Part shown: positions 5,056 to 43,634 of the stretch, one piece after another
Layout of the letters: each line of letters opens with the position of its first letter
How positions within the stretch are numbered: the stretch's first letter is position 1
NCBI GenBank assembly: GCA_965219345.1
Contig: OZ244732.1
Location: 928,001-992,000, forward strand
Source: Nitrosopumilus sp.
Lineage (GTDB): Archaea > Thermoproteota > Nitrososphaeria > Nitrososphaerales > Nitrosopumilaceae
Reading direction: 5' to 3'
DNA length: 64,000 nucleotides
Translations under genes and position numbers: made by a program
The notes under the pieces: model-generated
Told to the model about the DNA's origin: nothing
Databases searched by the model: none
What the model saw: the letters and a program-made list of their open reading frames with translations, nothing else

Positions 5056-5110
5056 TTCTATCTAATTTCATTTTAGTAGGTTATTATACTGAGACACATC
5101 ACGTAACCTT

Positions 5111-5434
5111 ATGCATATTGAATACGAAGAATTTGATGCAATTGAAGATATCTTCATGTATATGGCGTCTGCAGCTCCTCCAATGAAAAATACAATGCCA
5201 ATTAATTCTTACAAAGGATATGTAATGTCATTTATTCCACTCAGTCCAACAACCGGTGAGTCTTATCTGATGATTTATGCCAAGGGTTCACTTGAACCGG
5301 GAATCTATGAATTTGATGTTGCATTAAATTCTTACAAAAAAGTTGAAAGTATTGAAAGAGCAGACAAAGTTTACTTTATCTCTCTAACACCAAAAAGAAA
5401 TACTATAGCAGACACTGCTATTGAAAACCTATAA
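5111..5434 (+). CDS. Hypothetical protein
   Basis: Clean 107-aa ORF. Confidence 0.7.
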   Translation: MHIEYEEFDAIEDIFMYMASAAPPMKNTMPINSYKGYVMSFIPLSPTTGESYLMIYAKGSLEPGIYEFDVALNSYKKVESIERADKVYFISLTPKRNTIADTAIENL

Positions 5435-7009
5435 TTTCTTTGTTTGAATCTTAGGTGCAGATACCGACAAACTTCTTGCATATTTGTCCATGATCTCATC
5501 TGGAGTTCTTCCATTAAAGAGATCTTTACACAATCCTCTAAGATACCTCATAATTGCCCAAGTCCCTGCTTTGAGAATTCCGTACATGAAGATCTTCATT
5601 GGTGGACCATAAGTTTTGTTTCTGAGAATAATTGGAATAATGTCATTAATTACACGTAGATTATTTTCCCAACATTTCCAAAACAGAGTAAATTGTGCCT
5701 CATTCAAGTTTCCAAAATGCATTGAATTCTTTTCACTAAAGTCCTGATAAAGTAATGGTGCTATTAATCCTCTAAAGTTCATCTGTCTAAAGTCTCTAAT
5801 CATATCAATTGTATACTGATTGTCCTCTGGAGTTTCGTCAGGCCAACCAATGATAATAGTTGCAGCTGGGAACCAGTGGTTTTCATTTAGAATCTTTGCA
5901 CCCTCTCTTACAACACTTCCCCATTCTTCAGGAGAAAATGGTTTTGTTTTAACGCCGAGATGTTTCTTTACCAATGCTGGTGCTACTGTTTCAATTCCCA
6001 AATTTGTTGCAAGCCATCTTCCTGTTTCATCTTGTTTATTGATATGTGAAATTTGTTGCATTAATGTAGGATCTGCTGCAACTGCTGAGAATGTCATATG
6101 TGTAGTTCCAATAAAGTTTGCCCCTAATCCTTTGAGTCCCTTCCACAAGTCAGTGATAACGTCTCTGTTTGGAATAAAGTCTCTATTATCACATCCATAA
6201 AGTAACATTTCATCTGAATGCAACCAAATTGAATCAAATCCATAATCTAAGTTAATTTTTGCTTCATGTTGTAATCTGTCTAATGGAAGATCTTTCTTTG
6301 ATCTTTTATTTACGTCACAAAAGTCACATCCTCTTCCACAACCTCTCATTGCCTCAATCAAGGAATTGATTGTAGGACCTTCAATAACTGGAATGTTTTC
6401 AAGGTTTCTAACAAAACAATGCATCAGTTCTGGTGCATCCCCTTTCTCTAAATCTTGGAACAAGTCTATTGCTAACTCATCGGCTTCACCAACCACCACT
6501 GTATCTATTCCATGAATCTTCATTCTGTCTGATTTAGCTAATTCCCATGCGCCGTTACCTCCAACTACAACTTTAAAATCATATTTCTTTTTGAGTTGAA
6601 TAATACTGGCACACATTTTTTTGAATTTCATTGCAACATAAGATAATTTTTCTGGTGACATTGTTGTTGTAACTGGAGCCATTCCTAGTGGATCCATTAC
6701 ATTAATTCCTACAACTTTGGTATCTGGCCCAATTGATTTGTGTAGCATTTCAGGATGTGCAAGAAATACATCTTCTCTTTTGTATCCTCCTTGAAGTAAT
6801 GAACTCTCTACTCTTCTTAATCCAACTTGAGCAACTTTAACTTCACCTGTTATTTTGTCTGTTTCAACTGAAGGACAGAACACTTTGTCAAAAACCCATT
6901 CAGGGAGAACCTCATATGGTCCACATGCTATAAATCCATACAGAAAATTTCCTCTATAATTTGTCATTAAGCTACGATCAGCAGTAAGTACAACACGTTT
7001 GCCAGCCAA
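5429..7009 (-). CDS. B12-binding-domain radical SAM protein
   Basis: RGCGRGCDFC motif; VVGG and VGEAD upstream. Confidence 0.9.
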   Translation of the reverse strand: MAGKRVVLTADRSLMTNYRGNFLYGFIACGPYEVLPEWVFDKVFCPSVETDKITGEVKVAQVGLRRVESSLLQGGYKREDVFLAHPEMLHKSIGPDTKVVGINVMDPLGMAPVTTTMSPEKLSYVAMKFKKMCASIIQLKKKYDFKVVVGGNGAWELAKSDRMKIHGIDTVVVGEADELAIDLFQDLEKGDAPELMHCFVRNLENIPVIEGPTINSLIEAMRGCGRGCDFCDVNKRSKKDLPLDRLQHEAKINLDYGFDSIWLHSDEMLLYGCDNRDFIPNRDVITDLWKGLKGLGANFIGTTHMTFSAVAADPTLMQQISHINKQDETGRWLATNLGIETVAPALVKKHLGVKTKPFSPEEWGSVVREGAKILNENHWFPAATIIIGWPDETPEDNQYTIDMIRDFRQMNFRGLIAPLLYQDFSEKNSMHFGNLNEAQFTLFWKCWENNLRVINDIIPIILRNKTYGPPMKIFMYGILKAGTWAIMRYLRGLCKDLFNGRTPDEIMDKYARSLSVSAPKIQTKKL

Positions 7010-22400: not shown

Positions 22401-23221
22401 CAACTATGGATATCTACCTTGATAAAGAAATAAAGAAATCACGAGAAAAGGCAATTGAGGTTGCAAGAAATGTATTACAAACTAAAGTAAGTGCATTAAT
22501 TGCTGATACTGAAACTGATTATTCTACTGAAATCAAATTAATTTTGAGCGAAAAGAGACTTGGAGAGAGAGGATGTTCCATTGCAGAGGTGGAAACATCA
22601 CTTTCATCAAATAAAAAATTTAAGATGGAAACAACTGGAGAATTAATTACCCTAAAATTAGTTGAAGAATCTGATACTGCAACAGTAATTGCAATTAGAA
22701 ATAAAATTCTTAATACCACAGTTAAAGGAGTCCCAGATATTGAACGTGTCACATTAGTTCAAAAAGATGATGAATGGGTAATCCAAACAACTGGCTCTAA
22801 CATTGCAAAAGTACTTGAAGTCAAAGGTATTGACAAACAGAATGTTAGAACAAACAATGTCTTTGAAATTGCAGGAACTTTGGGTATTGAAGCTGCAAGA
22901 AATTCATTAATTAACGAACTAAATCATACTTTAGAGGATCAAGGATTGGAGGTTGATAATAGATACATTATGTTGGTCTCTGACTTGATGTGTTCAAGAG
23001 GATATATGCAACAAATTGGCAGACATGGAATTGCTGGTACCAAAGATAGTGTTCTTGCAAGAGCTGCATTTGAAATTACAGTGCCAACAATTGCACATGC
23101 TGCACTTGCTGGAGATGTAGAACAACTCAAAGGAATTACTGAAAACGTAATTGTTGGAAGCAATATTCCAATTGGAAGTGGCACTGTTGATTTATACATG
23201 CAAGTCTCCAAAAAGAAGTAG
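19430..23221 (+). CDS. rpoA1: RNA polymerase largest subunit (A'+A'' fused)
   Basis: YNADFDGDEMN and GEPGTQMTLRTFH in one ORF. Confidence 0.99.
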   Translation: MSIQAIKSIDGIRFSVWSPTEIRKYSVAEITAPETYDEDGMAVQGGLMDGRLGTLEPGQKCLTCGNTAARCPGHFGHLELAEPVLHIAFIDNIYKLLQSTCRSCARLKVPQEDLDAFKKIKIKKSSYTVISQKRIPEQIIEKAKKAKECPHCGKTQYELIFTKPTIFVEKTEIGEHRLLPITIRERFSQILDEDLELLSYDPVTARPEWFILQAFPVPPVTVRPSIILETGIRSEDDLTHKMVDIIRVNQRLKESKDAGTPPLIVQDLVDLLQYHTTTYFDNEVSGIPQAHHRSGRPLKTLTQRLKGKEGRFRGSLSGKRVDFSSRTVISPDPNLDLSEVGVPTAVAMKLTIPEIVTEWNIERMKKLVINGPETFPGVNYIVRPDGVKIRLDFVEDRSTIAETLEIGYLIERHLSDGDIVMFNRQPSLHQMSIMAHYVKVLPGKTFRLHPSVCPPYNADFDGDEMNLHVPQSEEARAEAILLMRVQDQLISPRYGGPIIGALRDFVTGAYLLTKDDTTLTVQEFSNLAMLGGYTDTLPKPATKTKDGPAYTGKQLFSLFLPKDFNYVITSKWSKGTQGASKDVVIKNGELISGVIDKASIGAEEPESVLHRIAKDYGNQVGKDFLNSILIMVKQFITSYGFSYGYGDLEVPEKDVQKILDDIGSTYDIVSDLTHQYEKGTLKLTRGMKPEEALEAYIVNELGKARDKAGSTADQSLDETNSGRIMATTGARGSSLNIGQMAGALGQQSRRGNRLHDGYHNRALTHFQEHDANPDAHGFVKSNYRTGLSTLEFFFHAMGGREGLVDTAVRTQQSGYMQRRLINALEHIRLEYDGTVRDPHGHIVQFLYGEDGIDVAKSDHGEAFNASRLVESQTIIDSGKKATKDEIDTLAKKYTKTFNPRLTSLVTDALHDSNLSKEGAEIVCKKGLSLYNKAKVEPGQAVGIITAQSIGEPGTQMTLRTFHFAGIKERNVTLGLPRLIELVDARKKPVTPTMDIYLDKEIKKSREKAIEVARNVLQTKVSALIADTETDYSTEIKLILSEKRLGERGCSIAEVETSLSSNKKFKMETTGELITLKLVEESDTATVIAIRNKILNTTVKGVPDIERVTLVQKDDEWVIQTTGSNIAKVLEVKGIDKQNVRTNNVFEIAGTLGIEAARNSLINELNHTLEDQGLEVDNRYIMLVSDLMCSRGYMQQIGRHGIAGTKDSVLARAAFEITVPTIAHAALAGDVEQLKGITENVIVGSNIPIGSGTVDLYMQVSKKK

Positions 23222-23264
23222 CCTATAACCACTTTTTTAAGCAAGTTTTTCCCTGAAACCTCCT

Positions 23265-23387
23265 ATGTTCAAGGCAAATCCACAGATCCAGAAAAAAGTC
23301 ATTGAGATTCTAAAAGATCCTGATACGAAAGAGTGGATAGACACTATTAGATCTGATAGTGCAAGAAGAAACTATCGGTTCTGGTAA
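23265..23387 (+). pseudogene. Possible N-terminal remnant of an integrase
   Basis: 40-aa ORF ...KEWIDTIRSDSARRNYRFW* resembling an integrase core-binding N-terminus; ends at a repeat. Confidence 0.3.
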
Positions 23388-23658
23388 ATTCTGGTGATCT
23401 GCACCATAAATCATCAGACATAGTTCTTCTCCGAATCGCTCTTTGAAATCCTCGGATAACTAGTACTTGATAATTTTCTCGAAATTATCTATCATAACCA
23501 TGCTGTTAAATTCTGGTGATCTTGATCACCATTTTTTACCAGAACTGGTTTGATCTATTCTTGTAATTTGATCTTGTTTTTCAACAATTTGTTTTCCACG
23601 TGTTTGTCTTTGATTTATACGATAGACACCTCAAAAATTATAAAGTAGTAAAAACAAA

Positions 23659-23747
23659 CGGTGAGTGTGGGAATTGAACCCACGATGTCCTTCTCAGAGA
23701 CAATCGCCTCATCAAGGCGACATCTTACCATACTAGATAAACTCACC
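23659..23747 (-). tRNA. Atypical tRNA: anticodon GAT (Ile), long variable arm, G73
   Basis: GGTGAGT/ACTCACC acceptor, ATCT/AGAT D-stem, TCGCC-TTGATGA-GGCGA, 20-nt variable region, GTGGG-TTCAATT-CCCAC; TATAAATA about 25 bp upstream. Confidence 0.85.
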
Positions 23748-23839
23748 ATGTGTTATTATTAACACTAGGGTTATTTATAGATTTAGTTAACAATATGGTT
23801 AACAATAAATTTATAATGACATGGATATTATTTCATACT

Positions 23840-24019
23840 ATGACAAGATGGAAGAAAGATAAAACAGAGTTTAGCGTTTCAATAAACACACTTTCAAATA
23901 GAAATGGTTCAACATCTCAAGTTTGTACAATTCCAAAACCAATAATAGAATTTTTGGGAGAACCTGAAAATCTAAAGTTTGTTATTCGTGGTAAGGGAAT
24001 TGTTGTAACATCAAACTAA
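23840..24019 (+). CDS. AbrB/MazE-like small DNA-binding protein
   Basis: TIPKPI..LG....LKF swapped-hairpin pattern; GTTAACAAT direct repeats upstream. Confidence 0.65.
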   Translation: MTRWKKDKTEFSVSINTLSNRNGSTSQVCTIPKPIIEFLGEPENLKFVIRGKGIVVTSN

Positions 24020-24050
24020 CAAGATTGAATAAAAACAAAGAAAAAGAATA

Positions 24051-24240
24051 TTATGTAAACTGTTGAGATTCTTTTTTCATATAGTTTGAAACGAGTTTTT
24101 TACCATTTTCATTTATGAAATATTTTTTACAAAACCCATTTTCTGCTTTGACTTTCTCAGATCTTAAAAGACCTACTTTTTCCAGTTTACTCAATCGGGA
24201 AATTACTGCTCCTTTATCTGCGTTTAGTTTGGTTATCGGT
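24051..24240 (-). pseudogene. 5'-truncated winged-helix regulator
   Basis: KLNADKGAVISRLSKLEKVGLL...KKYFINENGKK is a wHTH C-terminal half. Confidence 0.6.
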
Positions 24241-25059
24241 ATTACCCCTGATGCTATTTTCCAGTGTGACGATGACAAACAAGGAATCGCATGTGAAATT
24301 AAAACATCTCTTCCAGCATCTGAGAAATATTTACTCAATGATATGAAAAATCTAATTGAGAAATATTCTGATATTAAAAAAGGTTGGAAAACAAAAAATG
24401 GAACCATTAAAGATCATTCTATTTTATTATTATTACATAGAACTGATTCTAAAAAATTTAATTCCCTTTTATCTAAATGGATTGACGCTAAAGATATTGT
24501 AACTGATAAAAATATCTGTATTGCAGACTGGCAATCAATTCGTCCGTTTAAAGTAGGTTCCAAAGATACTACTTTACTTAGCCATCGTTCTGGAACTACT
24601 GGTTGTGATTATTTTGATAAAAAATTAACAGATGATATTGAATTAGATACTGATGCACTTTTTTTGGGATATGAAACAAGAAAATTTGTAAAATCTGCTC
24701 CCCCTAATCTCTATATTATGACTATGCTATATCAGGACATATTTCCAACATTTGCCAACAATGAAGATGAATTTACTGTTACTGTTAAACAACTGATGAA
24801 AATCTTGACGGATTATTATGCAAGTTGGTCTGGTTTAGAGGGAGAACAAACTCAAATTAGAACAAGATGGGTAGTTTGGGCTATGGATAAGTTTACGGAA
24901 ATAAAAATTGCCGAAAAAATACCTGAAAAATCCTACGCATACCGTGTTAAATGGTCTAAAAATTTGCCTAAAGATATTAAAGAATATCTCTTGGTCAAAT
25001 TATGTGGCAAAGAAGAAGATGCTATAGTTGATCCCAAACAAACTAAATTAAACACCTGA
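24115..25059 (+). CDS. Putative PD-(D/E)XK nuclease-fold protein, probably 5'-truncated
   Basis: TPDAIFQ...ACEIK; the first ~40 codons are antisense to the wHTH remnant. Confidence 0.55.
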   Translation: MKYFLQNPFSALTFSDLKRPTFSSLLNREITAPLSAFSLVIGITPDAIFQCDDDKQGIACEIKTSLPASEKYLLNDMKNLIEKYSDIKKGWKTKNGTIKDHSILLLLHRTDSKKFNSLLSKWIDAKDIVTDKNICIADWQSIRPFKVGSKDTTLLSHRSGTTGCDYFDKKLTDDIELDTDALFLGYETRKFVKSAPPNLYIMTMLYQDIFPTFANNEDEFTVTVKQLMKILTDYYASWSGLEGEQTQIRTRWVVWAMDKFTEIKIAEKIPEKSYAYRVKWSKNLPKDIKEYLLVKLCGKEEDAIVDPKQTKLNT

Positions 25060-25163
25060 TTTTTTACTTAATTTTATTTTTCAAAAACTACCAAAATATT
25101 GAAAATCGTTCATGTAAACTGTTTATTTTAAATGGTTAAATTCTAGAGCAGAAAACTTACTTC

Positions 25164-25649
25164 ATGGATTTTGAACTAATCGAAAAAATTCTTAAAAATG
25201 CATTAAAGAAATTGAAAGAATTTGATTTCAAATTATTAGAAGTTAATGTAAATGAAAGAACGATTTCTCATAAACTGGCAGAATATCTTCAGCAAAACAT
25301 TCACGATTTATCTGTTGATTGTGAATACAATAGACGTCAGGGATCAATAAAGAAATCAAATATTCCATGTGATGATACTGACAGAGAGGATTCAGATGCT
25401 AAGGCCATTCTTCCAGATATTGTTATTCATAAGAGAAATACTAATGATGAGAATCTTCTAATCATAGAAATAAAAAAATCCACCAATAACCAAAGCCATG
25501 ATTCTGATATATCTAAAATTAAGGCATTAACTAATGAACCATATAATTACAAATTTGGTTTATTTTTAGAAATTAATGTTGCTGAAGGAAGTGATTCTTT
25601 AAAGTGGTTCAAGGAAGGCAAATTATTCAAACAAGTAGACTTGAATTAA
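25164..25649 (+). CDS. PD-(D/E)XK nuclease family protein
   Basis: NERTISHKLA, VDCEYNR, PDIVIH, IIEIKK. Confidence 0.7.
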   Translation: MDFELIEKILKNALKKLKEFDFKLLEVNVNERTISHKLAEYLQQNIHDLSVDCEYNRRQGSIKKSNIPCDDTDREDSDAKAILPDIVIHKRNTNDENLLIIEIKKSTNNQSHDSDISKIKALTNEPYNYKFGLFLEINVAEGSDSLKWFKEGKLFKQVDLN

Positions 25650-25707
25650 GTATTTGAATAGATATTATGCAGAAGAAATTCTAAGAATTACTTTTAAAGG
25701 ACTTTGA

Positions 25708-26131
25708 TTGAAGGAAACTACGTTTTTTTACCAAAAAATTCCTATTACTCCAAAAAAGAAATCTGGATTATTATCCAAAGATGTTTTGAATCAAAAAATT
25801 AAACCTCAGCCAAATCTTAAGGATGCAAAAAAATTGCTAGATATGAAAATCAAAAAATCAAATGTTGTGTTTTTAATCGATGAAAATATTCTAGGAATTG
25901 ATCGATATCTCTCATCTTTTGAAATAAAATACAGAAAAGTAGGTGATATTAACTGCCCTCCCAGAGGTTCAGATGATCCTACTGTGGCAAAATTCGCTCA
26001 GAAACATAATCTTGTGGTTGTGACAAATGATGAAACTCCAAAAACAATGTGAACCATTAGATGTCCCTTGTATTGTTCCAACTCTTAGTGATTTGGCAAA
26101 AAAAGTAAGAGCATATTCAAATTCACGCTAA
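25708..26131 (+). pseudogene. PIN-like (Mut7-C/DUF5615-type) protein, frameshifted near 26030
   Basis: FLIDEN...GSDD...VVVTND; continues as KLQKQCEPLDVPCI in another frame. Confidence 0.55.
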
Positions 26132-26309
26132 TCACCTTTCAAAACCCCATTTGAAAATGTCTAAATATGGTTGAATAAGTTCAAAATTGAACAATAATTG
26201 CTTAATTTTTTACATATTACATCCTACAAATCTACAAAAACTGACAACTTGTACATGCAAGTAAGTAAGAAAAAATGAGGAACAAAAATTAAACTACAAG
26301 TGAATAATT

Positions 26310-31171: not shown

Positions 31172-31260
31172 TAGCCCGAGGAAGATTCGAACTCCCGTCT
31201 CCGCCTATCCACTCTTTGAGATCCAGAGGGCAGAATCCTTGACCGCTAGACTATCGGGCT
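31172..31260 (-). tRNA. tRNA-Gln(CTG) with a 16-nt intron at 37/38 (about 31207-31222)
   Basis: AGCCCGA/TCGGGCT acceptor, CT-CTG-G anticodon loop, GGGAG-TTCGAAT-CTTCC T arm. Confidence 0.9.
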
Positions 31261-33959: not shown

Positions 33960-34694
33960 ATGAGGAAAAATGACAAAATGTTGATTAATAGATTTAATAA
34001 AATTTTCATTATTACTGCGATGTCATTATTTGTCGTATCTTCATTAGCTTCTGAAGCTTTAGGTTATGGTGGCCCTCCAGAACAAAGCAGTACTAACAAT
34101 TTCACTGTAGCGATATACTCTGATAAAGAATCATACAATCTTGGAGAAACAGTAACATTTTCTGGAAGTGTTAACAAGTATGATGAGGACAGAAATTTAC
34201 GGATCTCAATCTTTGATTCTAGTAACAAGTTTATTGCAACTCAGAAAACTCCAGTCAACGTTGATGGCACATTCTCTCACAGTGTAATACTAAATGAGAA
34301 ATTTTCTGATGGAAACTACATAGTTAAAGCTCAGTATGGAAGTTCAAAGACAACAGTAGAAAAAATGTCATTTGTGATAAATTCCAATGGTGCATCTATG
34401 GAAGAACAATTATCTGCTGGTCAAGTCCCTGATTGGATTAAATTTACTGCAGGTGTTTGGGTCGATGGAAACTCTTCAGATGGTGAATTTATTAGCGCAA
34501 TTAAGTTCCTTATTGAAGATAAAATTATTGTAATTCCACCAACTACACAAGGTTCAAACGGAGAATCTAATCAAGTTCCATCATGGATTAAATTCACTAC
34601 GGGTGTTTGGGTCGATGGAACATCTTCAGATGGTGAATTTATTAGCGCAATTCAATTCTTGATCAAAGAAGGAATTATGAAAATATCAAATTAA
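33960..34694 (+). CDS. Secreted thaumarchaeal protein with two VP.WIK...W...DGEF repeats
   Basis: Signal peptide, Ig-like domain, duplicated C-terminal domain. Confidence 0.8.
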   Translation: MRKNDKMLINRFNKIFIITAMSLFVVSSLASEALGYGGPPEQSSTNNFTVAIYSDKESYNLGETVTFSGSVNKYDEDRNLRISIFDSSNKFIATQKTPVNVDGTFSHSVILNEKFSDGNYIVKAQYGSSKTTVEKMSFVINSNGASMEEQLSAGQVPDWIKFTAGVWVDGNSSDGEFISAIKFLIEDKIIVIPPTTQGSNGESNQVPSWIKFTTGVWVDGTSSDGEFISAIQFLIKEGIMKISN

Positions 34695-34838
34695 CTTAAA
34701 ATTTTAATTTAATTACAAACATATCTGGAAAAAAGAATTTGAGCCTGATTATTTGCGCTCAGAATCATATTTCTTGTGACATTTAGAAGAATAAAACAAA
34801 TGGTTCTAATAGTGACTAAAAAGACCTAGGAATCTGAT

Positions 34839-34988
34839 ATGAAATATCTATGCAGAACCTGTAAAACGAAATGTGATGATATTCCAATACATATGATTGA
34901 GGTACACAAATTTTCAAAATCAATTGTGGACTCACAACTCAAATCAAACCCAAATTCTTTTAAAAATGCCTTTGAAAAATTAGCATAA
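34839..34988 (+). CDS. 49-aa C2H2-type zinc-finger microprotein
   Basis: Hand translation MKYLCRTCKTKCDDIPIHMIEVHKF... Confidence 0.55.
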   Translation: MKYLCRTCKTKCDDIPIHMIEVHKFSKSIVDSQLKSNPNSFKNAFEKLA

Positions 34989-35001
34989 TTATAGACCTAC
35001 A

Positions 35002-36075
35002 ATGCAAGCAAAACTTATGAAAAACAATCTGAAATCTTTAGAGATCTCCTCAGCAGAGTGGTATTCTCTAAATCAGTTTCTATATCAGATAAAACAGATT
35101 GACTCTCCATGTGTGTCGGTATACTATCCATATGGTAAGGGGAAAGAGACCATCTCTTTACTCCAAGAGACAAACAGGAAAGAGTCATTTGAAAGAATTG
35201 AATCAGCAATTGAGAAAAGAATCATACATCTTAGGAAGAATCCTTCGTCAGTAGGCAAGTTTGCAAAGACTCTATGTATTTTTGGATGGATAAAGAATGG
35301 CAAAGTACACACCAAAGAAATTGGAACCTCCAAGAGACTTCCCTACATCTACATGGCAAGCAAAAAACCATACATCAAACCATTCCGTGATATTCTCAAA
35401 ACCAATCATGATGTTTTACTAGTAACTCTTGATCAAAAATCTGCAAGAATACAGAAATTTCACGGGAGTCAGATAATTCAAGAAGCTAAACTTGGAATTG
35501 ATCTCCGAAGTAGACATAGAAAAGGAGGACAGAGTCAGGGAAGATTTCTAAGGGCAAGACAAACAAAGATTCATGTCTTCTTTAAGAAAGTTGCAACCAA
35601 AGTCAGAAACATGGATTCTAATTCTGAGTTGATACTGTTAGGTGGAATAGGTCCTGCAAAGACAGAATTTTACGGAGAACTAGACTCGGAACTGGTAAAA
35701 AAATGTCGATTTGTACAAGACTTGTCTTTCTCTACTCCTATTCATGATATTCACAAGAAGATAATTCATCACTTGTACCAGTATAGAAGACGATATGTCG
35801 CACAAATAATTGAAAAATACGAGAAACTATTCAAAGATGGACTAACTGCGAAAAGAAATGATGTTATCTACAAGGCATTAGAGATTGGAGCCGTAGATAC
35901 GCTTATTGTTTCTGTAGACTATCACACCAACTCCCAATTCAAAAGTATAATGAAGATGCTAGAGATTGCTAGAAATAATTCCACTAGAATAGAGTTTGCA
36001 GTATCTCCAAAAATTATTGAAAAACTAGATCTTCATAATTCTGTTCTAGCTATACTTCGATACAGAATAAAATAA
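35002..36075 (+). CDS. aRF1/eRF1-superfamily paralog
   Basis: HRKGGQSQGRF, LGG.G..K.EF, GAVDTL. Confidence 0.8.
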   Translation: MQAKLMKNNLKSLEISSAEWYSLNQFLYQIKQIDSPCVSVYYPYGKGKETISLLQETNRKESFERIESAIEKRIIHLRKNPSSVGKFAKTLCIFGWIKNGKVHTKEIGTSKRLPYIYMASKKPYIKPFRDILKTNHDVLLVTLDQKSARIQKFHGSQIIQEAKLGIDLRSRHRKGGQSQGRFLRARQTKIHVFFKKVATKVRNMDSNSELILLGGIGPAKTEFYGELDSELVKKCRFVQDLSFSTPIHDIHKKIIHHLYQYRRRYVAQIIEKYEKLFKDGLTAKRNDVIYKALEIGAVDTLIVSVDYHTNSQFKSIMKMLEIARNNSTRIEFAVSPKIIEKLDLHNSVLAILRYRIK

Positions 36076-36107
36076 TCATTTTTAACCATTGAATTATATA
36101 TTTTTCC

Positions 36108-36359
36108 ATGGATTTCATGTTGGAAGAAGAATTGATAGACTTGATGACATTTTGCCTGCAAAATCCAGATTCTGCAGAAATTAATGATAAACATTCAAGA
36201 ATCACTGAGATTGGTCATGAACTTTATGCTGATGGTGGAGTTGATGCTTTGGAGAACTTTGCTTTTGTTTTAAAAAATCGAATTACACAAGAAATAGATA
36301 AAGATCCATCCTCGATGCGTTCGCTATGGAATGGTCTAACTGATGAATGGAAATACTAG
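36108..36359 (+). CDS. Hypothetical protein
   Basis: Clean 83-aa ORF with TATA upstream. Confidence 0.65.
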   Translation: MDFMLEEELIDLMTFCLQNPDSAEINDKHSRITEIGHELYADGGVDALENFAFVLKNRITQEIDKDPSSMRSLWNGLTDEWKY

Positions 36360-36361
36360 TT

Positions 36362-36715
36362 TCATAAATCGAATGTAACGTCCAAGAATTCTCCAATTTC
36401 CTTGAATGTGAAATTATGTGAATCATTGAGTGTTTTGATAATTAGTGATATCTCTGCATTATAATCCCAAGAAAAATCATCTCCCATAAGATATGGGTAC
36501 ACTTTTTCTTCCCTTATTCCGTATGATTGCAATATTTCATAATGACTTGCAAACAATTTTTCTCTACTCAAATGAACAGCTGGATCATCACTCTCACACG
36601 CTAATACACCAAGCGCAGACTTGCCAACTACTTCATCTGTGTTGTCTTTGAATTTAATTAAATGGTTAGTAATTTGTGGAATGGTTGTCTCCTTTAGTAT
36701 CTGGCTAATCTTCAT
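36362..36715 (-). CDS. Hypothetical protein
   Basis: Clean 117-aa ORF. Confidence 0.65.
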   Translation of the reverse strand: MKISQILKETTIPQITNHLIKFKDNTDEVVGKSALGVLACESDDPAVHLSREKLFASHYEILQSYGIREEKVYPYLMGDDFSWDYNAEISLIIKTLNDSHNFTFKEIGEFLDVTFDL

Positions 36716-37088
36716 TATTTTGCGATTCGTTTAATGTCTAATAAAAATAATGTCAGTTAATCTTTAAATTCATCAATTCTAAGAGTATTTTTTCATGATC
36801 AACTTCTAGTTCTGTACTAAGCAAGACAAAAGACCCGTCTCTTAACTCTCTAGTTATTCGTTTTACCTTTTCATATATTGTAACTGAATATATTGATCTG
36901 CCTATTGATGAGAAAAGGAGTTCTTTTCACTTTGTAATAGGCGCTGCCTTAATACTACCTAAACTTCAATCAAACCCACAAATTAGGAACAAATTAATTC
37001 TATACTATTTATTGCCCATATTTCTTGGATTAGTGATTCTATTTGGTTGATTCACCAATTTTTAATATTGGGAAGTGCTACCAAAAAC

Positions 37089-37253
37089 ATGGCTGACACA
37101 TCTAAAAAAAAACAGGATGTGTTAGAAGAAAAACGTGTTCTAGATCTGTATAATTGTAAAGATATTCCACTACAATACGAAATTAAACCTAGAGGTACTA
37201 TCGAATTCGTCGAATCTGATGAAATAAAAAAAGAAGATTTTTTAGATGATTAG
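37089..37253 (+). CDS. Small hypothetical protein
   Basis: ATG at 37089 after a TTTTTAATA box. Confidence 0.4.
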   Translation: MADTSKKKQDVLEEKRVLDLYNCKDIPLQYEIKPRGTIEFVESDEIKKEDFLDD

Positions 37254-37300
37254 TAAATATTTATTAAAATTGACAATTATTATAAATTTACAAGCAGTAA

Positions 37301-37573
37301 TCAAAAAAATTTGGTAAAACCGCCAGTTATTATGATGGTGAGATTTGCAAATTTGATTTGAACATTCTTAGCTGTGTCATTTCCTATATTAAACAAGTTA
37401 AAATTAATTGTTGCATCATTGTCATCATGATAAATAATTCCCGTATCTTTAGTTAAAATGATCTTTTCTAATGAAGATACTAATTTTGGTCCTCCTTCTG
37501 CAGCATATATGGGATTTGACAAGGTGATTGATACTAGTAATAATAAGATTATTGATACGACCATTCTTTTCAA
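37301..37573 (-). CDS. Short secreted protein, probably truncated
   Basis: Signal peptide; N.G...A.NV Ig-like strand, then an abrupt end. Confidence 0.45.
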   Translation of the reverse strand: MKRMVVSIILLLLVSITLSNPIYAAEGGPKLVSSLEKIILTKDTGIIYHDDNDATINFNLFNIGNDTAKNVQIKFANLTIIITGGFTKFF

Positions 37574-37583
37574 TTTTTTTCAC

Positions 37584-38648
37584 TTATTTTGGTATATTAA
37601 ATAATGACCATATCACACGATGATCAGATATTGCCCATTTTGTATATGCTCTAAATTGTGATTTTCTTTTAGTATTGTATAATTTCTGAAAACATACAGT
37701 ATCAAAAGCAAAAATTTGTGCTTTGTGTTCCTTTGTTACTTTAATTTTCTTAGAAAATGGTTCTGAGACAACAAGTTGATCATAATATGCATTATTATTG
37801 ATGTTAGAACCCTTTTTGATTTGTTTGTCTTTGAGTTTGTTTGAATCATCATTAATTGTAGAATCTGATTTAATTACACTTCCTTTTCCAATATGCTCAT
37901 GGTAGCGTAGTGGAGCTAGATGTTTTCTCTTTAGTCTTTTGTATACTGCATCTGTTTTTTCCATTCTTGGTACATTAAAATCTCCTAAAAGTAAAATATT
38001 ATGAGAAAATAATTCATTCTTATCTTTTTTTAATAATTTTTCAATCCAACTTGTAAGTGAATATATTTCTAATACTCTTTGTTGAAATTGACGTGTCTTT
38101 TCACTCTTTTTTCCATAATAGATATGTGAATTATATGTAGTAAAAGTTGTTGAATTAAATTTCCAAGATGCCAAGTATGACGGTCTATCATACCCTCTGA
38201 ATTTTACTGATTTTCCATTAAACTTTAATGATTTTCTTTGAGATGGTGGAATTGTTAATTCTCCAATATGATTTAACAATTCTAATCGTTTGGGTTTGTA
38301 GATGTATGTCATCCGTTCCTTGTTTCCTCCCGTATCGCTGAATAAGCATACATGAGTTCTTTTTAATATATTCATGATTTTGTTCAAACCAGTCATATTA
38401 GCATTAACTTCTTGTATGGCGATTAGATCAAATGGTTTTATGATTTCTGCAATCAAATTATAACAAGAATTTGTTCTTTCTTGGACATCAAAATTTGCTA
38501 TATTCCAACTTCCTATCAACAATTGATTTTTCTTTGGTTTTGAAATTCCTTCAGGGATTGCCTTGCGTTGTAATTTACGAATGGCTTTGATCTCTACTTT
38601 TTTATTAAAATTATATGTAAATGTTTTAGGTCTACAAAAAGGAGGCAC
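37584..38648 (-). CDS. Endonuclease/exonuclease/phosphatase (EEP, DNase I-like) protein
   Basis: SWNI, AIQEV, GDFN, YDQ, SDH. Confidence 0.9.
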   Translation of the reverse strand: MPPFCRPKTFTYNFNKKVEIKAIRKLQRKAIPEGISKPKKNQLLIGSWNIANFDVQERTNSCYNLIAEIIKPFDLIAIQEVNANMTGLNKIMNILKRTHVCLFSDTGGNKERMTYIYKPKRLELLNHIGELTIPPSQRKSLKFNGKSVKFRGYDRPSYLASWKFNSTTFTTYNSHIYYGKKSEKTRQFQQRVLEIYSLTSWIEKLLKKDKNELFSHNILLLGDFNVPRMEKTDAVYKRLKRKHLAPLRYHEHIGKGSVIKSDSTINDDSNKLKDKQIKKGSNINNNAYYDQLVVSEPFSKKIKVTKEHKAQIFAFDTVCFQKLYNTKRKSQFRAYTKWAISDHRVIWSLFNIPK

Positions 38649-38842
38649 ATTATAGTTAATTTTGTACTAGTACTAAACTCTTCAGGTATTACTTACTTGA
38701 AGTATTATTTCATGAAATTACTTTATCGTTTATTAAAACAGAAGATTCACTCTTTGAATTTATTTGATCGATGTTAATCCATTTTGGTGGAAATGGATGG
38801 ATTGAATAAAGTTCTTTTAATTGTTTAACATCCTGTAAGAAC

Positions 38843-39252
38843 CATGCTTGGAAAAAACAATACAAAGCCAAGAATTTACTGCACAAGGAAACAGAACACC
38901 ATAGACACATTCACCTTTCAGGGGATATGAACAACAACCAGATGGAATCCTTTAACGGAAACACACTAAGAATGAGAGAGAAAATTGTTAGGGGAATAAA
39001 GAAAGACGATTCTGCAATACTCAAGTTTTTCAGGATCTATGTAGATTGGATTCCAGTCCTAGGGGAATAAAGAAAGACGATTCTGCAATACTCAAGGGTA
39101 TGCAGCTTCACCACAACTACATTAGACCACACTAAGGATTGGATGGTGATACACCCACTGACGGGGCAGGAATCAGGGTTATGGGTGATAATAAATGGAA
39201 GACGATAATTCAGAATGCGGTAAAATCTGATCTACCGAGCTGTCCCAAGTAG
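38843..39252 (+). pseudogene. C-terminal remnant of an archaeal IS6-like DDE transposase
   Basis: NNNQMESFNG...REKIVRGIKK...HNYIRPH*GL.G.TP...AGI; internal stop and a 71-bp insertion. Confidence 0.7.
38989..39096. repeat. 37-bp perfect direct repeat flanking a 34-bp unique insert
   Basis: TAGGGGAATAAAGAAAGACGATTCTGCAATACTCAAG at 38989-39025 and 39060-39096. Confidence 0.95.
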
Positions 39253-39474
39253 AATTATCTACCACTGATGTACCAGTTCAGGTTTTTGTGATATAACTGG
39301 GTTTTGAACATAATAGTTACTAAGATATAATTTGAGAGACTATAAAAGATGATTTAATGTGAATGTGTTGTTCATACTCCTGAAAATCTACCTAAATATT
39401 TTTTCAGATCCTATCTTATGTCTTCATAAAACATCAAATAAGATAAATCATATTTAGTATCGGTTTTATTTTGT

Positions 39475-40263
39475 TTATGAATCCAGTAATTCGGATTTTT
39501 TCTTTTCAAAGTCTGTTTCGGTGATAACATCCATTATCATCATATCATACCATTCCCTGATTTGGATTCGTTTATCTTCATCACTCATCTGGGTTGATTT
39601 TAGATTGTCTGCAGTCTGTTTGATTTTTTTAGTAGCATCCATACTTTTCATTTTGATTTTTTCAGTAGAGATTTTCTCACTTGTTTTTTTACCAATATCT
39701 ATCACACTTGAAGCAGTTTTGTTAGAATATTGTTTTAATTTATCAGTAATGTTTCGTTGTGGTAGTATGGCTTTTTTCCATTCTCTTTTTGATTTGTAAC
39801 CACAGGCCTTTAGATTGTATTGTGTCGTCCACTTGAACATAAAATAAACTACAATAAAGATAGAGCCAAGAAAGATAACTGTATGATACAAAACAATTAA
39901 CGAAAATGAAATTAAAAATATAAAATCATCCAAATTTCCACTGTGAGGAAAGTAATCATAAATCAACTCACTAAGAAAAATCTCTAGATGATAGTGGGGT
40001 TCAATGTAAAGTGAATACCCAATACTTTCAGTTATGGTCATATCTTGATCAATTTCAAGAGGATATAAAATATAATCAAGAATAAACCAGACAGTTAGAA
40101 AAACTACAAATAATGGTATCCATTTTCTTGTCTTATGCATTTTGCTTGTCCAAAGTAGTGCAAATATTGAACATGAGAAAAAACAAGCCCAAAACCTAGA
40201 TAGTGGTTGTTGTGGTTTGGCTTGATCTTCTGTGATTTTTGGATCAGCCATATATTTGAGCAA
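39475..40263 (-). CDS. Membrane protein with a C-terminal SHOCT-like domain
   Basis: Several TM segments; ITETDFEKKKSELL. Confidence 0.7.
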   Translation of the reverse strand: MLKYMADPKITEDQAKPQQPLSRFWACFFSCSIFALLWTSKMHKTRKWIPLFVVFLTVWFILDYILYPLEIDQDMTITESIGYSLYIEPHYHLEIFLSELIYDYFPHSGNLDDFIFLISFSLIVLYHTVIFLGSIFIVVYFMFKWTTQYNLKACGYKSKREWKKAILPQRNITDKLKQYSNKTASSVIDIGKKTSEKISTEKIKMKSMDATKKIKQTADNLKSTQMSDEDKRIQIREWYDMMIMDVITETDFEKKKSELLDS

Positions 40264-40413
40264 AAATTAGAGAATAAAAACAATACTACACTTAAATTAT
40301 TTTTATTCCTGTTAAAAAATAGGAAAATTGAGGGTTAATTGTATCTATGACAACCCTAATACGACTTGCGATCTAATATCTAATCGATTTTTGATCGTCA
40401 TGTTTTTAATTAA

Positions 40414-41482
40414 TAGAGATTATGCGTAATCGATCATAATATCCGCACAATACGTGGTTTTACGATACACACGCACGTCAGCGGCAGAACGGCTTGCAGC
40501 CAGATAATCCGCACAACACATGAACAAAAACGCCAGAATCCAAAATGCAATGCGCAGCCCTGCAGCACCGCCACGTGCTCCGAAATCACATCGTCAATCC
40601 GGTGGCACTTGCTGCCACCCGCGGCGCTAACCAAGAAATCTTCTGCGTAGCTTGGGACTTCCCCTGTGAAGCGTCTTCATCAGGTGCAGGTTTACCAGGC
40701 CCGCAACGACATTCATCTCGCAGTTGAGCTCGTCCTCGGTGCCGCCGTACGGCTCTGTCATCCTGGCATACTGCTTTATCCTGCCTATGCTGTTCTCCAC
40801 TGTCACCTTGATGCCGCCTACCTTCTTGTTGCGCTTCTTTTGCTCATCTGTCAGATTTCGGGCCTCCCCCTCCTTTCCCTTTCTTCTTCTTGGTCTTTTG
40901 TACGGCATGATTACGTTTGCGCCCAGAAGATCCTTTTGCATTCCCTGATACCCAAGATCCATGTATGCGGTAAACCTCTCGCTTTTTGGATTGGACCCGT
41001 CGTGCATTTTTTCAGCCCACCTGCCAAACGGAATCGGATCTTCCCTGAGCAGTGTTATGTCATGGGTCTTTCCAACGACGGTGCTGCCGATTCCCAGGAT
41101 GATGTTGTTTGTAGCGGACACTGGTTGTGTTGAACGTATGCCTCTTTTTCTTGCCTGAATACATCTCCTTTCTTCTGTCCTTCTTGCCGGAACGGCGCAC
41201 GGGTATGTGGGTGCCGTCGACCAGCAGCGTTCCTGCGCCCCTGCATTCACTGGGATGTTGATGCCATGTCTGGTCTTCCACAGGCCGCGCTCAAGATCCA
41301 GCTCCTCGTTTTTCTGCTCCAGCTCCTTGCCTTTCTGCCCCAGGGTCTTCTTTAGTTTTTTGATCTCCTGTTGCAGCCTGCGTATGGTTTGATCAGATGA
41401 ATCTGGCATTTGATGTGTGGCATGATCGTGTCTGATCTAAACTTATCGGCGTGGGGTTTGGAGGGATTACGCATAATCTCTA
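40414..41482 (-). mobile_element. GC-rich IS5-family (DDE_Tnp_4-type) element
   Basis: Perfect inverted repeats TAGAGATTATGCGTAATC / GATTACGCATAATCTCTA; composition shift. Confidence 0.85.
40627..41409 (-). pseudogene. IS5-family transposase, frameshifted
   Basis: LVDGT...YSGKKKRH in one frame; HD...DLGYQG...VENSIGRIK in another. Confidence 0.8.
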
Positions 41483-41549
41483 TTATTGGAGAATATATAA
41501 AATCACATAATAAGAGAGTAGAATCCAAAGAAATAAGTCCGAATTCTGT

Positions 41550-41611
41550 ATCAAATTATAACAAGAATTTGTTCTTTCTTGGACATCAAAATTTGCTATA
41601 TTCCAACTTCC
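41550..41611. repeat. 62-bp exact copy of 38452-38513 (internal to the EEP gene)
   Basis: ATCAAATTATAACAAG...CCAACTTCC identical at both sites, same orientation. Confidence 0.92.
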
Positions 41612-41887
41612 CAGATATTATGTAATTTCTGATTTAGAATCAGGTGATGCTGCTGATATATCACTACAGGTATCTGCTGCTCTAATTGATGACTTGTATA
41701 GAGGACCAGCAACACAAACAATTACATCAATTGTTGAATGTAATAGTTAATCTTTTTTTCTTTTTATTAATTTAAATTAAACATGAAACAATATTTTAGA
41801 TTGTATTGTTTTATTTAATATCAGAAATACTACTCTATCAAAATAAAAAACTAATAACTTTATAATTTGGATAAAATAATAAAACCT

Positions 41888-41976
41888 GTTGGCGTCGCCA
41901 AGCATGGTATGGCGTGAGTCTGATAAACTCAAATCTGATACCTTCGGATTCGCCGGTTCAAATCCGGCCGCCAACG
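41888..41976 (+). tRNA. Atypical tRNA: anticodon GAT (Ile), long variable arm, G73
   Basis: GTTGGCG/CGCCAAC acceptor, GCCA/TGGC D-stem, TGAGT-CTGATAA-ACTCA, AATCTGA/TCGGATT variable stem, GCCGG-TTCAAAT-CCGGC; TTTATAA at 41859. Confidence 0.88.
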
Positions 41977-42030
41977 GGTTTATGCTAAATGTAATATTCA
42001 CTATTATAAAAGATCATAGTATCAATTAAT

Positions 42031-43221
42031 TGTGGGATCCTGAAAGTAGTATACCCCCTATCTGACATCGTATTCCTCTCCCGTTTGTTCGTCAATAACT
42101 GTTTGTCCTGGGGATGGCATCTTTCTGGTGAATGCCCGCGCCGGTGTCTCTAGGTTGTCCAGATCAAGTGACATGTGTGGCCGGTCGTGGTTGAACCATT
42201 CCACAAACCGCTCCACGGGATCCGTCTTTGGTTTCGTGTTGAACGGTCCGCCCACACGGTCCGTCTCGGATCCTGCTGAACGCACCGTTCTGTAGGCCGA
42301 CTCCTCCTCGAAGAGGTGCAGTTTGCGCTGGAGTTCACCGTGAACCCTCTCGAGCTTGCCGTTTGTCTGCGGGTGTCTTACACGCGCCAGGATCTGCCTG
42401 ATGCCCAGCGACACCAGCTCCAGCTCAAATTCGGAGGCGCCTTTCTTCTTGTACTGCCCCTCGTTGGCGTAGAACTGGCTGCCGCGGTCAGTCAGAATGG
42501 ACGCGGGTTTGCCGTGCGCCTCCATTGCTGCCCTGAGAACCTCGATTGCGTGCCTGGAGGTGGCCTGATCAAAGACGCCGTATCCGACAATAAACCTGGA
42601 GGCGTCATCCAGATAGGCGATAAACCACCTTCCGTCATCCAGCTGCTTGTAGTCTGTGTGCCACATCGAGTTGGAGTAGGTGCGCTCAAAGCGGATCCAT
42701 TTGCGCCTCTTGCTCTTCTTGGGCTGCCTTGCCGACAGGTTGTTGTCCCTCATTATGCCGTGTACGGCATTGTGAGGGATATGTATTCCCTCTTCCTCCT
42801 CGATCAGTCGCTCCGTGCGGACGGCCCCCTGGCGGTGCCTGCAGTGTGCAGAGAGGACCGCAGTGTTCCCTGCGACCCGGAAGACCATTCTCGGGCCTGC
42901 CCATGCTAGCCGGGTAGACTATCCTGTCAGGTTCCACACCCTTGTACCTGGCCCACAGTTTCTTTACCCAGATCTCGGAGATGCCCATGGTATCTGCAAT
43001 CTGCCTGTTGGTCGTTTTGCCGGCCTTCTTCTGCAGGATTATCCACTTTACCTTTGACTCGTCAAGTTTTCTCATGACCCTGATGCGGCGCCTTCCGATA
43101 TGTCTCCACCTCTGTGTGCGCTTTAGGAACCCACGTACCATCATCTCAATTCTGCGTCTTGCTTCAGTCAGTATGCGTCCCTCCTATTTTGAGGGGGGTA
43201 TACTACTTTCTGGACTATACA
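42031..43221 (-). mobile_element. GC-rich IS481-family element with a 15-bp target duplication
   Basis: TGT...ACA ends; imperfect IR containing GAAAGTAGTATACCCCC; ATAGTATCAATTAAT at 42016-42030 and 43222-43236. Confidence 0.92.
42058..43076 (-). pseudogene. IS481 transposase, frameshifted near 42870
   Basis: HTH N-terminus (MRKLDESK...) in one frame; WHTD, DDASR, TDRGSQF, PQTNGKLER in another. Confidence 0.85.
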
Positions 43222-43248
43222 ATAGTATCAATTAATGATTTAACCATA

Positions 43249-43532
43249 ATGAATATATTAATTCGTAAAGCAACACAAAAAGACATACAGACTATATTGG
43301 AACTATTATACGAGTTAGGATGTCCAATGCAAAACTCATTAATGTGAATCTCACTGATGCAAATCTCCATAATGCAAATCTTACTAATACAGATCTAACC
43401 AATACAAAATTCCATAAGCAAACCTCTCTTATGCAGACCTTAGTGGTGCAAACCTCTATAGATCAAACCTCTCTTATGCAAACCTCATGGGTGCAAAACT
43501 CACTGGTGCAGGCCTTAAGGATACAGCATTAA
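43249..43532 (+). pseudogene. GNAT N-terminal fragment joined to a pentapeptide-repeat remnant
   Basis: MNILIRKATQKDIQTILELLYELG, then ANL/ADL pentapeptides across frameshifts. Confidence 0.55.
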
Positions 43533-43634
43533 ATAAGAAATTTTACTAATTCGACAAAACTTCATTGGTCATTTAAATTACAAAGAAAATTTCAAAATAG
43601 TTTCTTTAAATAACAAAATCGATGTCCATTATTA

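Follow-up and report, generated by a model that had tools for sequence, protein, structure and literature searches.

The window analysed here is a stretch of 64,000 nucleotides from the chromosome of a Nitrosopumilus species (C1:928001-992000; the genome comprises a chromosome of 1.87 Mb and a further contig of 41.6 kb, with 36% G+C). Our subject is a tRNA gene on its minus strand, which joins an isoleucine anticodon to a long-armed, serine-like body and lies in the remnant of an insertion sequence (IS) between rpoA and an LSm gene. The window's own genome is called G000, and the other G numbers stand for compared genomes. The gene is intact and 89 nt long; it and its signals are as follows.

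23659..23747, minus strand: class-II tRNA (long variable arm) with anticodon GAU, G37, G73 and a 7/5 cloverleaf (ARAGORN, Rfam RF00005, structure, covariation in nine relatives)
23772..23779, minus strand: TATA box of the tRNA, TATAAATA, with 24 nt between the box and +1 (read from the sequence)
23650..23658, minus strand: T-run directly after G73, read as an archaeal terminator (read from the sequence)

Structure of the tRNA gene

ARAGORN called three tRNAs in the window, two of which are 91-nt tRNA-Ile(gat) genes (23658-23748, minus strand, and 41887-41977, plus strand); the first of these is the gene considered here. The Rfam model RF00005 matched it over its full length (23659-23747, minus strand; model positions 1-71 of 71) with 54.5 bits against a gathering score of 29 (E 5.7e-09). 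An earlier note on this DNA, made from the letters alone, had described an 89-nt cloverleaf on the minus strand with all four canonical stems in Watson-Crick pairing, and both programs and the structure bear this out: the acceptor (GGTGAGT/ACTCACC) pairs at 7/7 positions, the D stem at 4/4, the anticodon stem at 5/5 and the T stem at 5/5, which makes 21 pairs in total. The anticodon loop TTGATGA supplies U33, the anticodon GAU and G37, the variable region of 20 nt forms a stem of 5 bp (four Watson-Crick pairs and one U-G), and the discriminator is G73, all in agreement with that description. The D-loop of 9 nt has a Ser-type geometry, and the CCA end is not encoded in the gene. Of the features universal in tRNAs, the gene has the 7-nt anticodon loop, U33, a purine at position 37, the GG of the D-loop and the TTC of the T-loop. 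An intron in place of the variable arm was considered because many tRNAs of this genome carry introns (ARAGORN, whole genome); this was ruled out, the extra 20 nt lying at the variable position and forming a co-varying stem.

The promoter element that had been predicted about 25 bp upstream was recovered as the TATA box TATAAATA, and GTTAAC-type motifs are repeated around it (about 23748-23839). On the other side the gene ends in the T-run; oligo-T serves as a transcription terminator in archaea.

The tRNA is cargo of an IS6-like element

Three features adjoining the tRNA belong to, or interrupt, the carrier element; one of them is a small open reading frame (ORF), another a repeat resembling a miniature inverted-repeat transposable element (MITE).

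23840..24019, plus strand: small ORF of 59 aa, divergent from the tRNA, accessory gene of the IS (paralogues, relatives)
23547..23618, minus strand: first 24 codons of an IS6-like transposase, a remnant (blastx, 67% identity to residues 1-24 of the G081 transposase, E 9.4e-06)
23377..23545, no strand: MITE-like repeat of 169 nt with 22-nt terminal inverted repeats, which truncates the transposase (inverted arms, genome copies)

The G081 transposase that served as the blastx reference comes from a tRNA-bearing IS copy. Because the transposase frame is cut by the MITE after 24 codons, the IS copy that holds the tRNA is dead; the adjacent small ORF has an uninterrupted reading frame. The MITE itself has four more full-length and about nine partial copies in the genome, and copies of 95% identity occur in G007.

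The small ORF has three paralogues in the genome, two of which stand beside the two CAG tRNAs of this genome in the same divergent arrangement. Each of these two tRNAs is accompanied, in its own orientation, by a transposase of about 370 aa. Three transposases of the carrier element scored 120.8, 114.2 and 97.5 bits with NF033587 (IS6), for which the cut-off is 125, and IS6 was the best-scoring family in all three cases. Among 47 loci gathered via the small ORF or the tRNA, the small ORF was present at 36 and an IS6-like transposase at 25. Terminal inverted repeats were looked for around the tRNA-bearing IS copies and none were found; in G002 an IS unit devoid of tRNA forms a 1.71-kb repeat in four copies, with inverted ends of about 85 nt around both genes.

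The small ORF is common: it was found in 27 of 100 other genomes of the genus and, across the class, in 72 of 301 genomes and 23 of 67 genera (the class-wide tallies include three unpublished genomes, G267, G339 and G379, with one match each, on which nothing else here depends). UniRef holds 163 relatives, and those with a name all come from Nitrososphaeria (Nitrosopumilus, Nitrosocosmicus, Nitrososphaera, Cenarchaeum). Since a tRNA is rarely found beside it (counts are given below), the small ORF is a gene of the IS in its own right and the tRNA an occasional cargo. One relative is named SpoVT-AbrB domain protein in UniRef. The AlphaFold2 model of the small protein (pLDDT 77.8) consists of a strand, a helix and two strands, and its top Foldseek hits were AbrB, MazE and MraZ, none of them significant (E 1.5-9, TM 0.42-0.50). 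Pfam gave no match at E values up to 10, and comparison by sequence with solved structures gave nothing below E 0.26. The small protein is probably an AbrB/MazE-like DNA binder.

The tRNA starts at the position of the transposase start codon

We aligned the promoter regions of tRNA-bearing IS copies (two from G000 and one from G052) with those of copies lacking the tRNA (G017, G103, G021). A TATA-containing promoter is common to both groups. In the tRNA-less copies this promoter abuts the sequence ...CATG, which contains the transposase start codon, and in the tRNA-bearing copies the tRNA starts at the very G that belongs to this start codon. The order in intact relatives is small ORF, divergent promoter, tRNA, T-run, a linker of about 50-70 nt with a second TATA, and the transposase ATG. 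As the tRNA begins where the leaderless transposase ATG sits in the tRNA-less copies, the alignment suggests that the IS promoter transcribes the tRNA.

A TATA-like element lies about 25-32 nt before +1 in all 12 examined tRNAs that are paired with a small ORF. Short direct or inverted repeats, which differ between subfamilies, flank the TATA of these 12 tRNAs and are plausible candidates for operator sites. In the tRNA-less copies at loci L021, L034 and L018, the transposase ATG follows about 25-30 nt after the TATA; with the ATG directly behind the promoter, the transposase mRNA of the IS looks leaderless.

The fold is under selection and the anticodon switches within a mobile family

Family members were counted by BLAST with two query tRNAs and via the small-ORF loci, and all family counts are hence lower bounds. 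Relatives on the scaffold of our tRNA occur in 9 of 150 other genomes of the genus; this patchy distribution and the carriage by an IS6-like element agree with the mobile tRNA family that the earlier note had postulated. Forty relatives drawn earlier had yielded only a partial match of 26 nt to the tRNA. The anticodon GAT is found on this scaffold in G052, G098 (twice) and G123, and the others are TAT (G163), GAA (G123, G164, G081), CAG (G082) and TAG (G070). The divergent small ORF is present at 6 of the 16 loci of the scaffold. The scaffold of the two CAG tRNAs, whose variable-arm geometry is that of the host Ser tRNAs, recurs with CAG in G081 and with GAG in two further genera (G231, G257), where it likewise faces away from the small ORF. 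Across three scaffolds, A35 is present in 28 of 29 members (GAT, TAT, GAA, CAG, GAG, TAG), which would accordingly read codons with a middle U (Ile, Phe, Leu); the choice of anticodons is thus not random. On each of two different anticodon stems both GAT and GAA are seen, indicating switches from GAT to GAA.

In an alignment of nine relatives, which represent seven species, pairing holds in 97.9% of 234 stem cells. Changes on both sides were seen in 8 of 26 pairs (anticodon stem three, acceptor and variable arm two each, D stem one); none of 500 shuffles reached the observed number of double changes, and sliding the partners lowered the pairing to 32-48%. The tRNA is also better conserved than its surroundings. 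The orthologue in G052 is identical at 86 of 89 positions (97%) with all three differences in loops, compared with 57% identity for the promoter, 58% for the small ORF and 68% downstream. Likewise, the two CAG copies of G000 share 99% of the tRNA (85/86) and 94% of the linker, against 75% of the transposase, 60% of the promoter and 61% of the small ORF. Between G000 and G123 the tRNA is 88% and the flanks are 85-88% identical. The excess of tRNA over flank conservation fits either purifying selection or a recent movement of the tRNA plus linker, as one cassette, between diverged IS copies.

Some family loci are rearranged. A fusion in G163 (C1:2193790-2196862) joins the T-arm of a GAA tRNA to a copy of our tRNA from the D-loop on, with 99% identity over positions 17-89, and an array in G098 (C1:1690000-1706000) contains two intact GAT tRNAs, further tRNA-like copies and 3′ fragments, with repeated small ORFs between them; both are signs of recombination between tRNAs of the family. 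A different kind of tRNA was called in G021 (C1:~1618100-1618200) just downstream of a small ORF: it is a class-I tRNA-like call of 72-77 nt with anticodon CAG, several stem mismatches and an Rfam score of 50.4 bits, distinct from the class-II family.

The host retains a normal isoleucine tRNA

ARAGORN lists 52 tRNA genes genome-wide. The question raised in the earlier note, whether a standard tRNA-Ile(GAT) exists elsewhere, has a clear answer: a canonical tRNA-Ile(GAU) of 75 nt (65.9 bits) lies at C1:871289-871363 near tRNA-Ala(UGC). It is of class I, with the loop CTGATAA, A37 and A73. The four host Ser tRNAs all carry G73 and the Leu tRNAs all carry A73. A single SerRS is present, with the N-terminal tRNA-binding arm (Seryl_tRNA_N).

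Nine odd class-II tRNAs with G73 and an anticodon other than Ser were identified in the genome (GAT, TAT, CAG and CCT twice each, TCT once). G73 is present in all nine, and eight pass the Rfam threshold. Our tRNA is 42-60% identical to the other eight and 48-57% identical to the host Ser and Leu tRNAs. These low values, together with 47% identity to the second GAU copy described below, indicate that it is not a recent mutant of a host gene. A near-identical mutant of a host tRNA was thus rejected, since no host Ser or Leu tRNA exceeds 57%, in keeping with the proposal that the gene is no point mutant of the host tRNA-Ser. For one sister gene, Ile(tat) at 1038939, identity to the host Ser(UGA) reaches 75% and the acceptor stem is shared, so that this one may be host-derived. 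Two further sisters are decaying: Arg(tct) at 334078 has a broken T stem, and Ile(tat) at 903933 has mismatches in the acceptor and anticodon stems.

The class-II G73 tRNAs with Arg anticodons lie at C1:1235416-1235499, 1718374-1718456 and 334078-334164 (CCT twice, TCT once). The sole normal-looking candidate for tRNA-Arg(CCU) bears an intron (C1:638710-638803) and came from a low-stringency ARAGORN run with 1670 calls in all. Neither ARAGORN nor Rfam found tRNAs for Trp, Glu(UUC), Leu(UAA) and Pro(CGG) in the genome; these are probably hidden by introns. In the window, a tRNA-Gln(CUG) with a 16-nt intron (31172-31260, minus strand) scored 45.7 bits with Rfam and was called by ARAGORN only in intron mode. 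A tenth long gene, Val(cac) at 1280474, was left out of the family: it has A73 and no variable stem, and probably contains a non-canonical intron. The 5′ end of this tRNA-Val(CAC) is overlapped by an ORF of 467 aa with a weak tyrosine-recombinase match (G000:C1:1274474-1286567, 4692-6095, minus strand), a layout that resembles integrase genes spanning their own att site.

A second GAU tRNA on a different scaffold

41888..41976, plus strand: second class-II tRNA with G73, GAU, A37 and a 7-bp variable-arm stem, on a different scaffold (Rfam 56.1 bits, ARAGORN)

The two copies are 18.1 kb apart and 47% identical, which matches the two dissimilar copies about 18 kb apart of the earlier note, and they do lie in separate accessory regions, as it had claimed. 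Copy 1 is within an insertion that G006 and G007 lack (next section), and the surroundings of copy 2 (about 34000-43570) have no synteny in G006, G007 and G017, synteny resuming at about 43570. The variable-arm geometry of copy 2 matches the pattern of the host Ser tRNAs. Relatives on its scaffold were detected by BLAST in 11 of 150 other genomes of the genus, ten with GAA, one with GAT and one with GGA. No conserved protein partner was found within 1.5 kb at 14 loci of this family. It had been argued that relatives with a Ser or Leu anticodon would speak against a separate tRNA family. To the letter such relatives exist (CAG, TAG, and GGA in one relative of copy 2), but they belong to the same mobile, anticodon-switching family and are not host tRNAs.

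An IS481-like element of 1.2 kb (window 42000-43200) begins some 50 nt beyond copy 2 on its downstream side; further copies of 99% identity, no fewer than five, are found at C1:439788, 463519, 1319875, 1462723 and 1361811. The genome is rich in IS.

The insertion at the 3′ end of rpoA

23206..26251, no strand: strain-specific insertion of about 3.05 kb between rpoA and LSm (rpoA and LSm are contiguous in G006 and G007)
23195..23205, plus strand: left copy of an 11-nt direct repeat, within the 3′ end of rpoA (comparison of the junction in G000, G006 and G007)
26252..26262, plus strand: right copy of the direct repeat; beyond it come the original rpoA end, now displaced, and LSm (junction comparison)

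The host RpoA is unsplit (1263 aa, Rpb1 domains 1-5), as is typical of the thaumarchaeal lineage; together with the many intron-bearing tRNAs and the Nitrososphaeria origin of all named small-ORF relatives, this marks the host as a thaumarchaeal archaeon. The rpoA-LSm locus, whose comparison with related genomes the earlier note had proposed, is free of the insertion in G006 and G007 of the same genus, where the rpoA end directly meets the LSm gene. The insert of G000 provides synonymous last five codons and the stop of rpoA (VSKKK-stop). The 11-nt direct repeat and the synonymous new rpoA end are what site-specific integration at a gene's 3′ end typically leaves behind, and integration of this kind with short att sites was described for 14 of 68 integrated elements of Thaumarchaeota in passages of PMC6563490. 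G017 carries a different insert of 5.6 kb, devoid of tRNA, at the same spot (G017:C1:1247800-1254000). With unrelated inserts in G000 and G017, this end of rpoA has been used for integration repeatedly.

Besides the IS remnant with the tRNA, the insertion contains three ORFs. The one of 161 aa (25164-25649, plus strand) matches the PADLOC model PD-Lambda-3_A, an anti-phage defence protein (E 1.1e-28), and has no match in Pfam or NCBIfam. The one of 314 aa (24115-25059) has no match in Pfam, PHROGs, NCBIfam or PADLOC, and the ESM Atlas gave unnamed clusters only. The third, of 114 aa (25708-26052), gave a DUF5615 match below the cut-off and nothing else. The nuclease/toxin-antitoxin-like island that had been suggested is thus borne out in part only: one ORF matches a defence protein, and the DUF5615 match does not reach its threshold.

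Is the tRNA charged with serine?

Three features of the gene, namely G73, the long arm and the Ser-type D-loop, suggest that a SerRS blind to the anticodon would serylate it. The reading that we favour, tentatively and at a little short of an even chance, is that the tRNA is IS-borne, is charged with serine by such an enzyme and would place Ser at AUY codons; its transcription, serylation and use on the ribosome are what we infer from the gene. The host SerRS, whose N-terminal arm would bind long variable arms and which would not read the anticodon, would load the tRNA with serine. The charged tRNA would then compete with the normal tRNA-Ile(GAU), and Ser would be placed at AUC and AUU; the sister copies would act likewise at Phe and Leu codons. 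The result would be a natural mobile mistranslator, its dose set by a regulated IS promoter. The single steps have precedents: SerRS does not use the anticodon (PMC6125640), in E. coli, bacterial allo-tRNAs of Ser identity bring Ser to Leu codons (PMC7609411, PMC5389517), and a yeast tRNASer with GAU or GAA does so at Ile or Phe codons, with lethal effect on accumulation (PMC6125640), as far as the relevant passages of these papers go.

Of the features of tRNA-Ser, a stemmed long arm and G73 are present; a host-like variable-arm geometry and a Ser anticodon are lacking. The acceptor had been called Ser-like in the earlier note, and this does not hold for its sequence, which is unlike that of the host Ser acceptors: the likeness to Ser resides in G73, the long arm and the D-loop geometry. 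Nor does the tRNA have the canonical features of tRNA-Ile (class I, A73, A37), for it has a long arm, G73 and G37.

Several observations weigh against a serine-charged mistranslator. G37, rightly noted before as unusual in a tRNA reading ANN codons, is atypical there, and the host tRNA-Ile(GAU) has A37. The variable arm leaves one nucleotide unpaired before its stem and two after it, compared with none and one in the host Ser tRNAs, and the SerRS identity rule that we applied is taken over from other organisms and is not the lineage's own. One relative on the scaffold has C33, and the family includes truncated, chimeric or broken-stem members, for example in G163, G164 and G098. In the transposases of tRNA-bearing IS copies, cognate codons occupy conserved columns of Ile, Leu and Phe, and the transposase of G052 has 25 AUY codons, including invariant Ile positions; misreading would therefore harm the IS itself. 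A tRNA was found beside the small ORF at only 4 of 30 and 4 of 28 loci in two samples with two places in common, and at none of 80 metagenomic and 2 viral small-ORF loci. Finally, no small ORF is found near members of the copy-2 family, nor does a transposase adjoin them, and a strongly toxic tRNA would there be unrepressed.

The alternative that survives best, somewhat unlikely in our estimate, is that the tRNA-shaped RNA serves the IS and not translation, as a processing signal for RNase P or tRNase Z through which a defined transposase mRNA would be set free, as an insulator or roadblock at the transposase promoter, or as a stabilising 5′ structure. It would account for the placement of the tRNA exactly between the IS promoter and the transposase start, for the tRNA plus linker behaving as one cassette (conservation of 94-99% between two IS copies whose other parts share 60-75%) and for IS genes that show no recoding; moreover, a transposon-adjacent allo-tRNA(UAU) species did not translate in E. 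coli according to passages of PMC5389517. Processing, however, needs the acceptor and T domain only, yet the anticodon stem and the variable arm show compensatory changes. Eight of 9 relatives retain an anticodon loop of 7 nt in which position 33 is U and position 37 a purine, G73 is kept throughout (the A73 of the TAG relative in G070 is taken up below) and the anticodons are limited to NAN. Co-transcription is not required either, given the second TATA between tRNA and transposase, and the copy-2 family is solitary.

We consider it rather unlikely that the gene is an inert relic, that is, a once-functional cargo in a dead IS which is too young to have decayed. The truncation of the transposase by the MITE, the two decaying sisters in the same genome (Arg(tct) 334078, Ile(tat) 903933) and the truncated or chimeric copies in G163, G164 and G098 would fit such a fate. 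At the locus itself, however, all 21 canonical stem pairs are Watson-Crick, the promoter and the terminator are intact and the adjoining small ORF is still open; compared with the G052 orthologue, its three changes are confined to loops, whereas the flanks have diverged to 57-68%.

Charging according to the anticodon, with Ile, or with Leu, which would make the tRNA a harmless extra isoacceptor boosting translation of the mobile element, is in our view very improbable. Mobile elements and viruses often carry tRNAs, the CAG/GAG scaffold combines a Leu-type D-loop with Leu anticodons, and the TAG relative in G070 has A73. Against this, the class-I host tRNA-Ile combines A73 with A37 and all host Leu tRNAs likewise carry A73, while our tRNA has G73, a long arm and G37; and the occurrence of Ile, Phe and Leu anticodons on one scaffold across species fits an anticodon-blind synthetase and not IleRS or PheRS.

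A reassignment of AUY or other codons to serine in the organism, for which the Ser-type tRNAs with non-Ser anticodons alone could be adduced, has a practically negligible chance, given the canonical tRNA-Ile(GAU), the AUY codons at invariant Ile columns of the transposases and the strain-specific occurrence of the odd tRNAs. A code change or programmed recoding restricted to the IS genes was rejected as well: the cognate codons in four tRNA-bearing IS transposases (7 and 4 CTG, 25 ATY, 18 TTY) fall on columns where the other 14-17 transposases have hydrophobic residues, and Ser or Thr occurs in some of these transposases at one column each only (311 and 327).

We regard it as unlikely, but worth stating, that they are 'poison tRNAs': mobile, Ser-charged decoders of Ile, Phe and Leu codons, placed at an IS transposase promoter under an AbrB-like repressor and acting as a conditional toxin in addiction, abortive infection or stress-induced scrambling of the proteome. 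The divergent layout and the repeats around the TATA are consistent with a toxin-antitoxin arrangement; the lack of a tRNA at all 82 metagenomic and viral small-ORF loci speaks against it. If true, this would be the first tRNA-based toxin module and would include the first natural mistranslator tRNAs described in Archaea. Should the tRNA be charged and used on the ribosome, ammonia-oxidising archaea would carry mobile genes that blur the code at its most damaging positions, polar for hydrophobic, and natural mistranslators are known so far from a few bacteria and eukaryotes. In any case, automatic annotation will label the genes of this family tRNA-Ile, tRNA-Phe or tRNA-Leu, and the tRNA sets of these genomes will be miscounted. 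The fixed place at the IS promoter beside a small putative repressor makes the system testable.

Comparison with known systems

In the full-text literature we found neither a natural mistranslator tRNA from archaea nor a tRNA as insertion-sequence cargo; the search did not extend to the allo-tRNA and IS locus tables in the supplements of PMC5389517 and PMC6563490, which may bear on novelty. The passages of the thaumarchaeal mobile-element survey available to us (PMC6563490) make no mention of tRNA cargo.

The closest known kind is the allo-tRNA family. Both groups have a body of Ser identity, a long variable arm and mostly non-Ser anticodons, with Ile among the commonest in allo-tRNAs (passages of PMC5389517 and PMC7609411). 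Both stand beside transposon genes, allo-tRNAs also by toxin-antitoxin genes, and both include decayed members (PMC5389517, in part); our tRNA likewise has a Ser-type body and a non-Ser anticodon and lies near transposon or toxin-antitoxin genes. Allo-tRNAs, however, are defined by an 8/4 or 9/3 acceptor/T geometry with a 12-bp branch, are bacterial (Clostridia, Proteobacteria, Acidobacteria) and use 35 different anticodons, as described in passages of PMC5389517, whereas our tRNA is 7/5 and archaeal and its family is limited to NAN. Unlike allo-tRNAs, the family has a defined cargo place at the promoter of an IS6-like element. With its 7/5 geometry and archaeal host, the tRNA would thus be allo-tRNA-like in its working but is not an allo-tRNA.

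Engineered anticodon variants of yeast tRNASer embody the same predicted chemistry, GAU and GAA giving Ser at Ile and Phe; they are laboratory constructs that are lethal on accumulation (PMC6125640, in part), whereas the present family consists of natural genes kept in wild genomes, and their activity is predicted only. A natural mismatch between identity elements and anticodon is also seen in tRNAProX of Streptomyces and Kitasatospora (PMC11415595, in part). Unlike our tRNA, it has Pro identity and is class I and bacterial. tRNAProX is reportedly accompanied by a dedicated synthetase. The nematode V-arm tRNAs (nev-tRNAs) of Hamashima et al. are reportedly class-II tRNAs with anticodons of class-I amino acids (Ile, Gly), and are said to be chromosomal genes of eukaryotes that no IS carries. 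The CUG-Ser tRNA of yeasts is, like our tRNA, of class II and has a Leu codon read as Ser (PMC6041473, in part); it differs from our tRNA in being a eukaryotic chromosomal gene and not the cargo of an IS.

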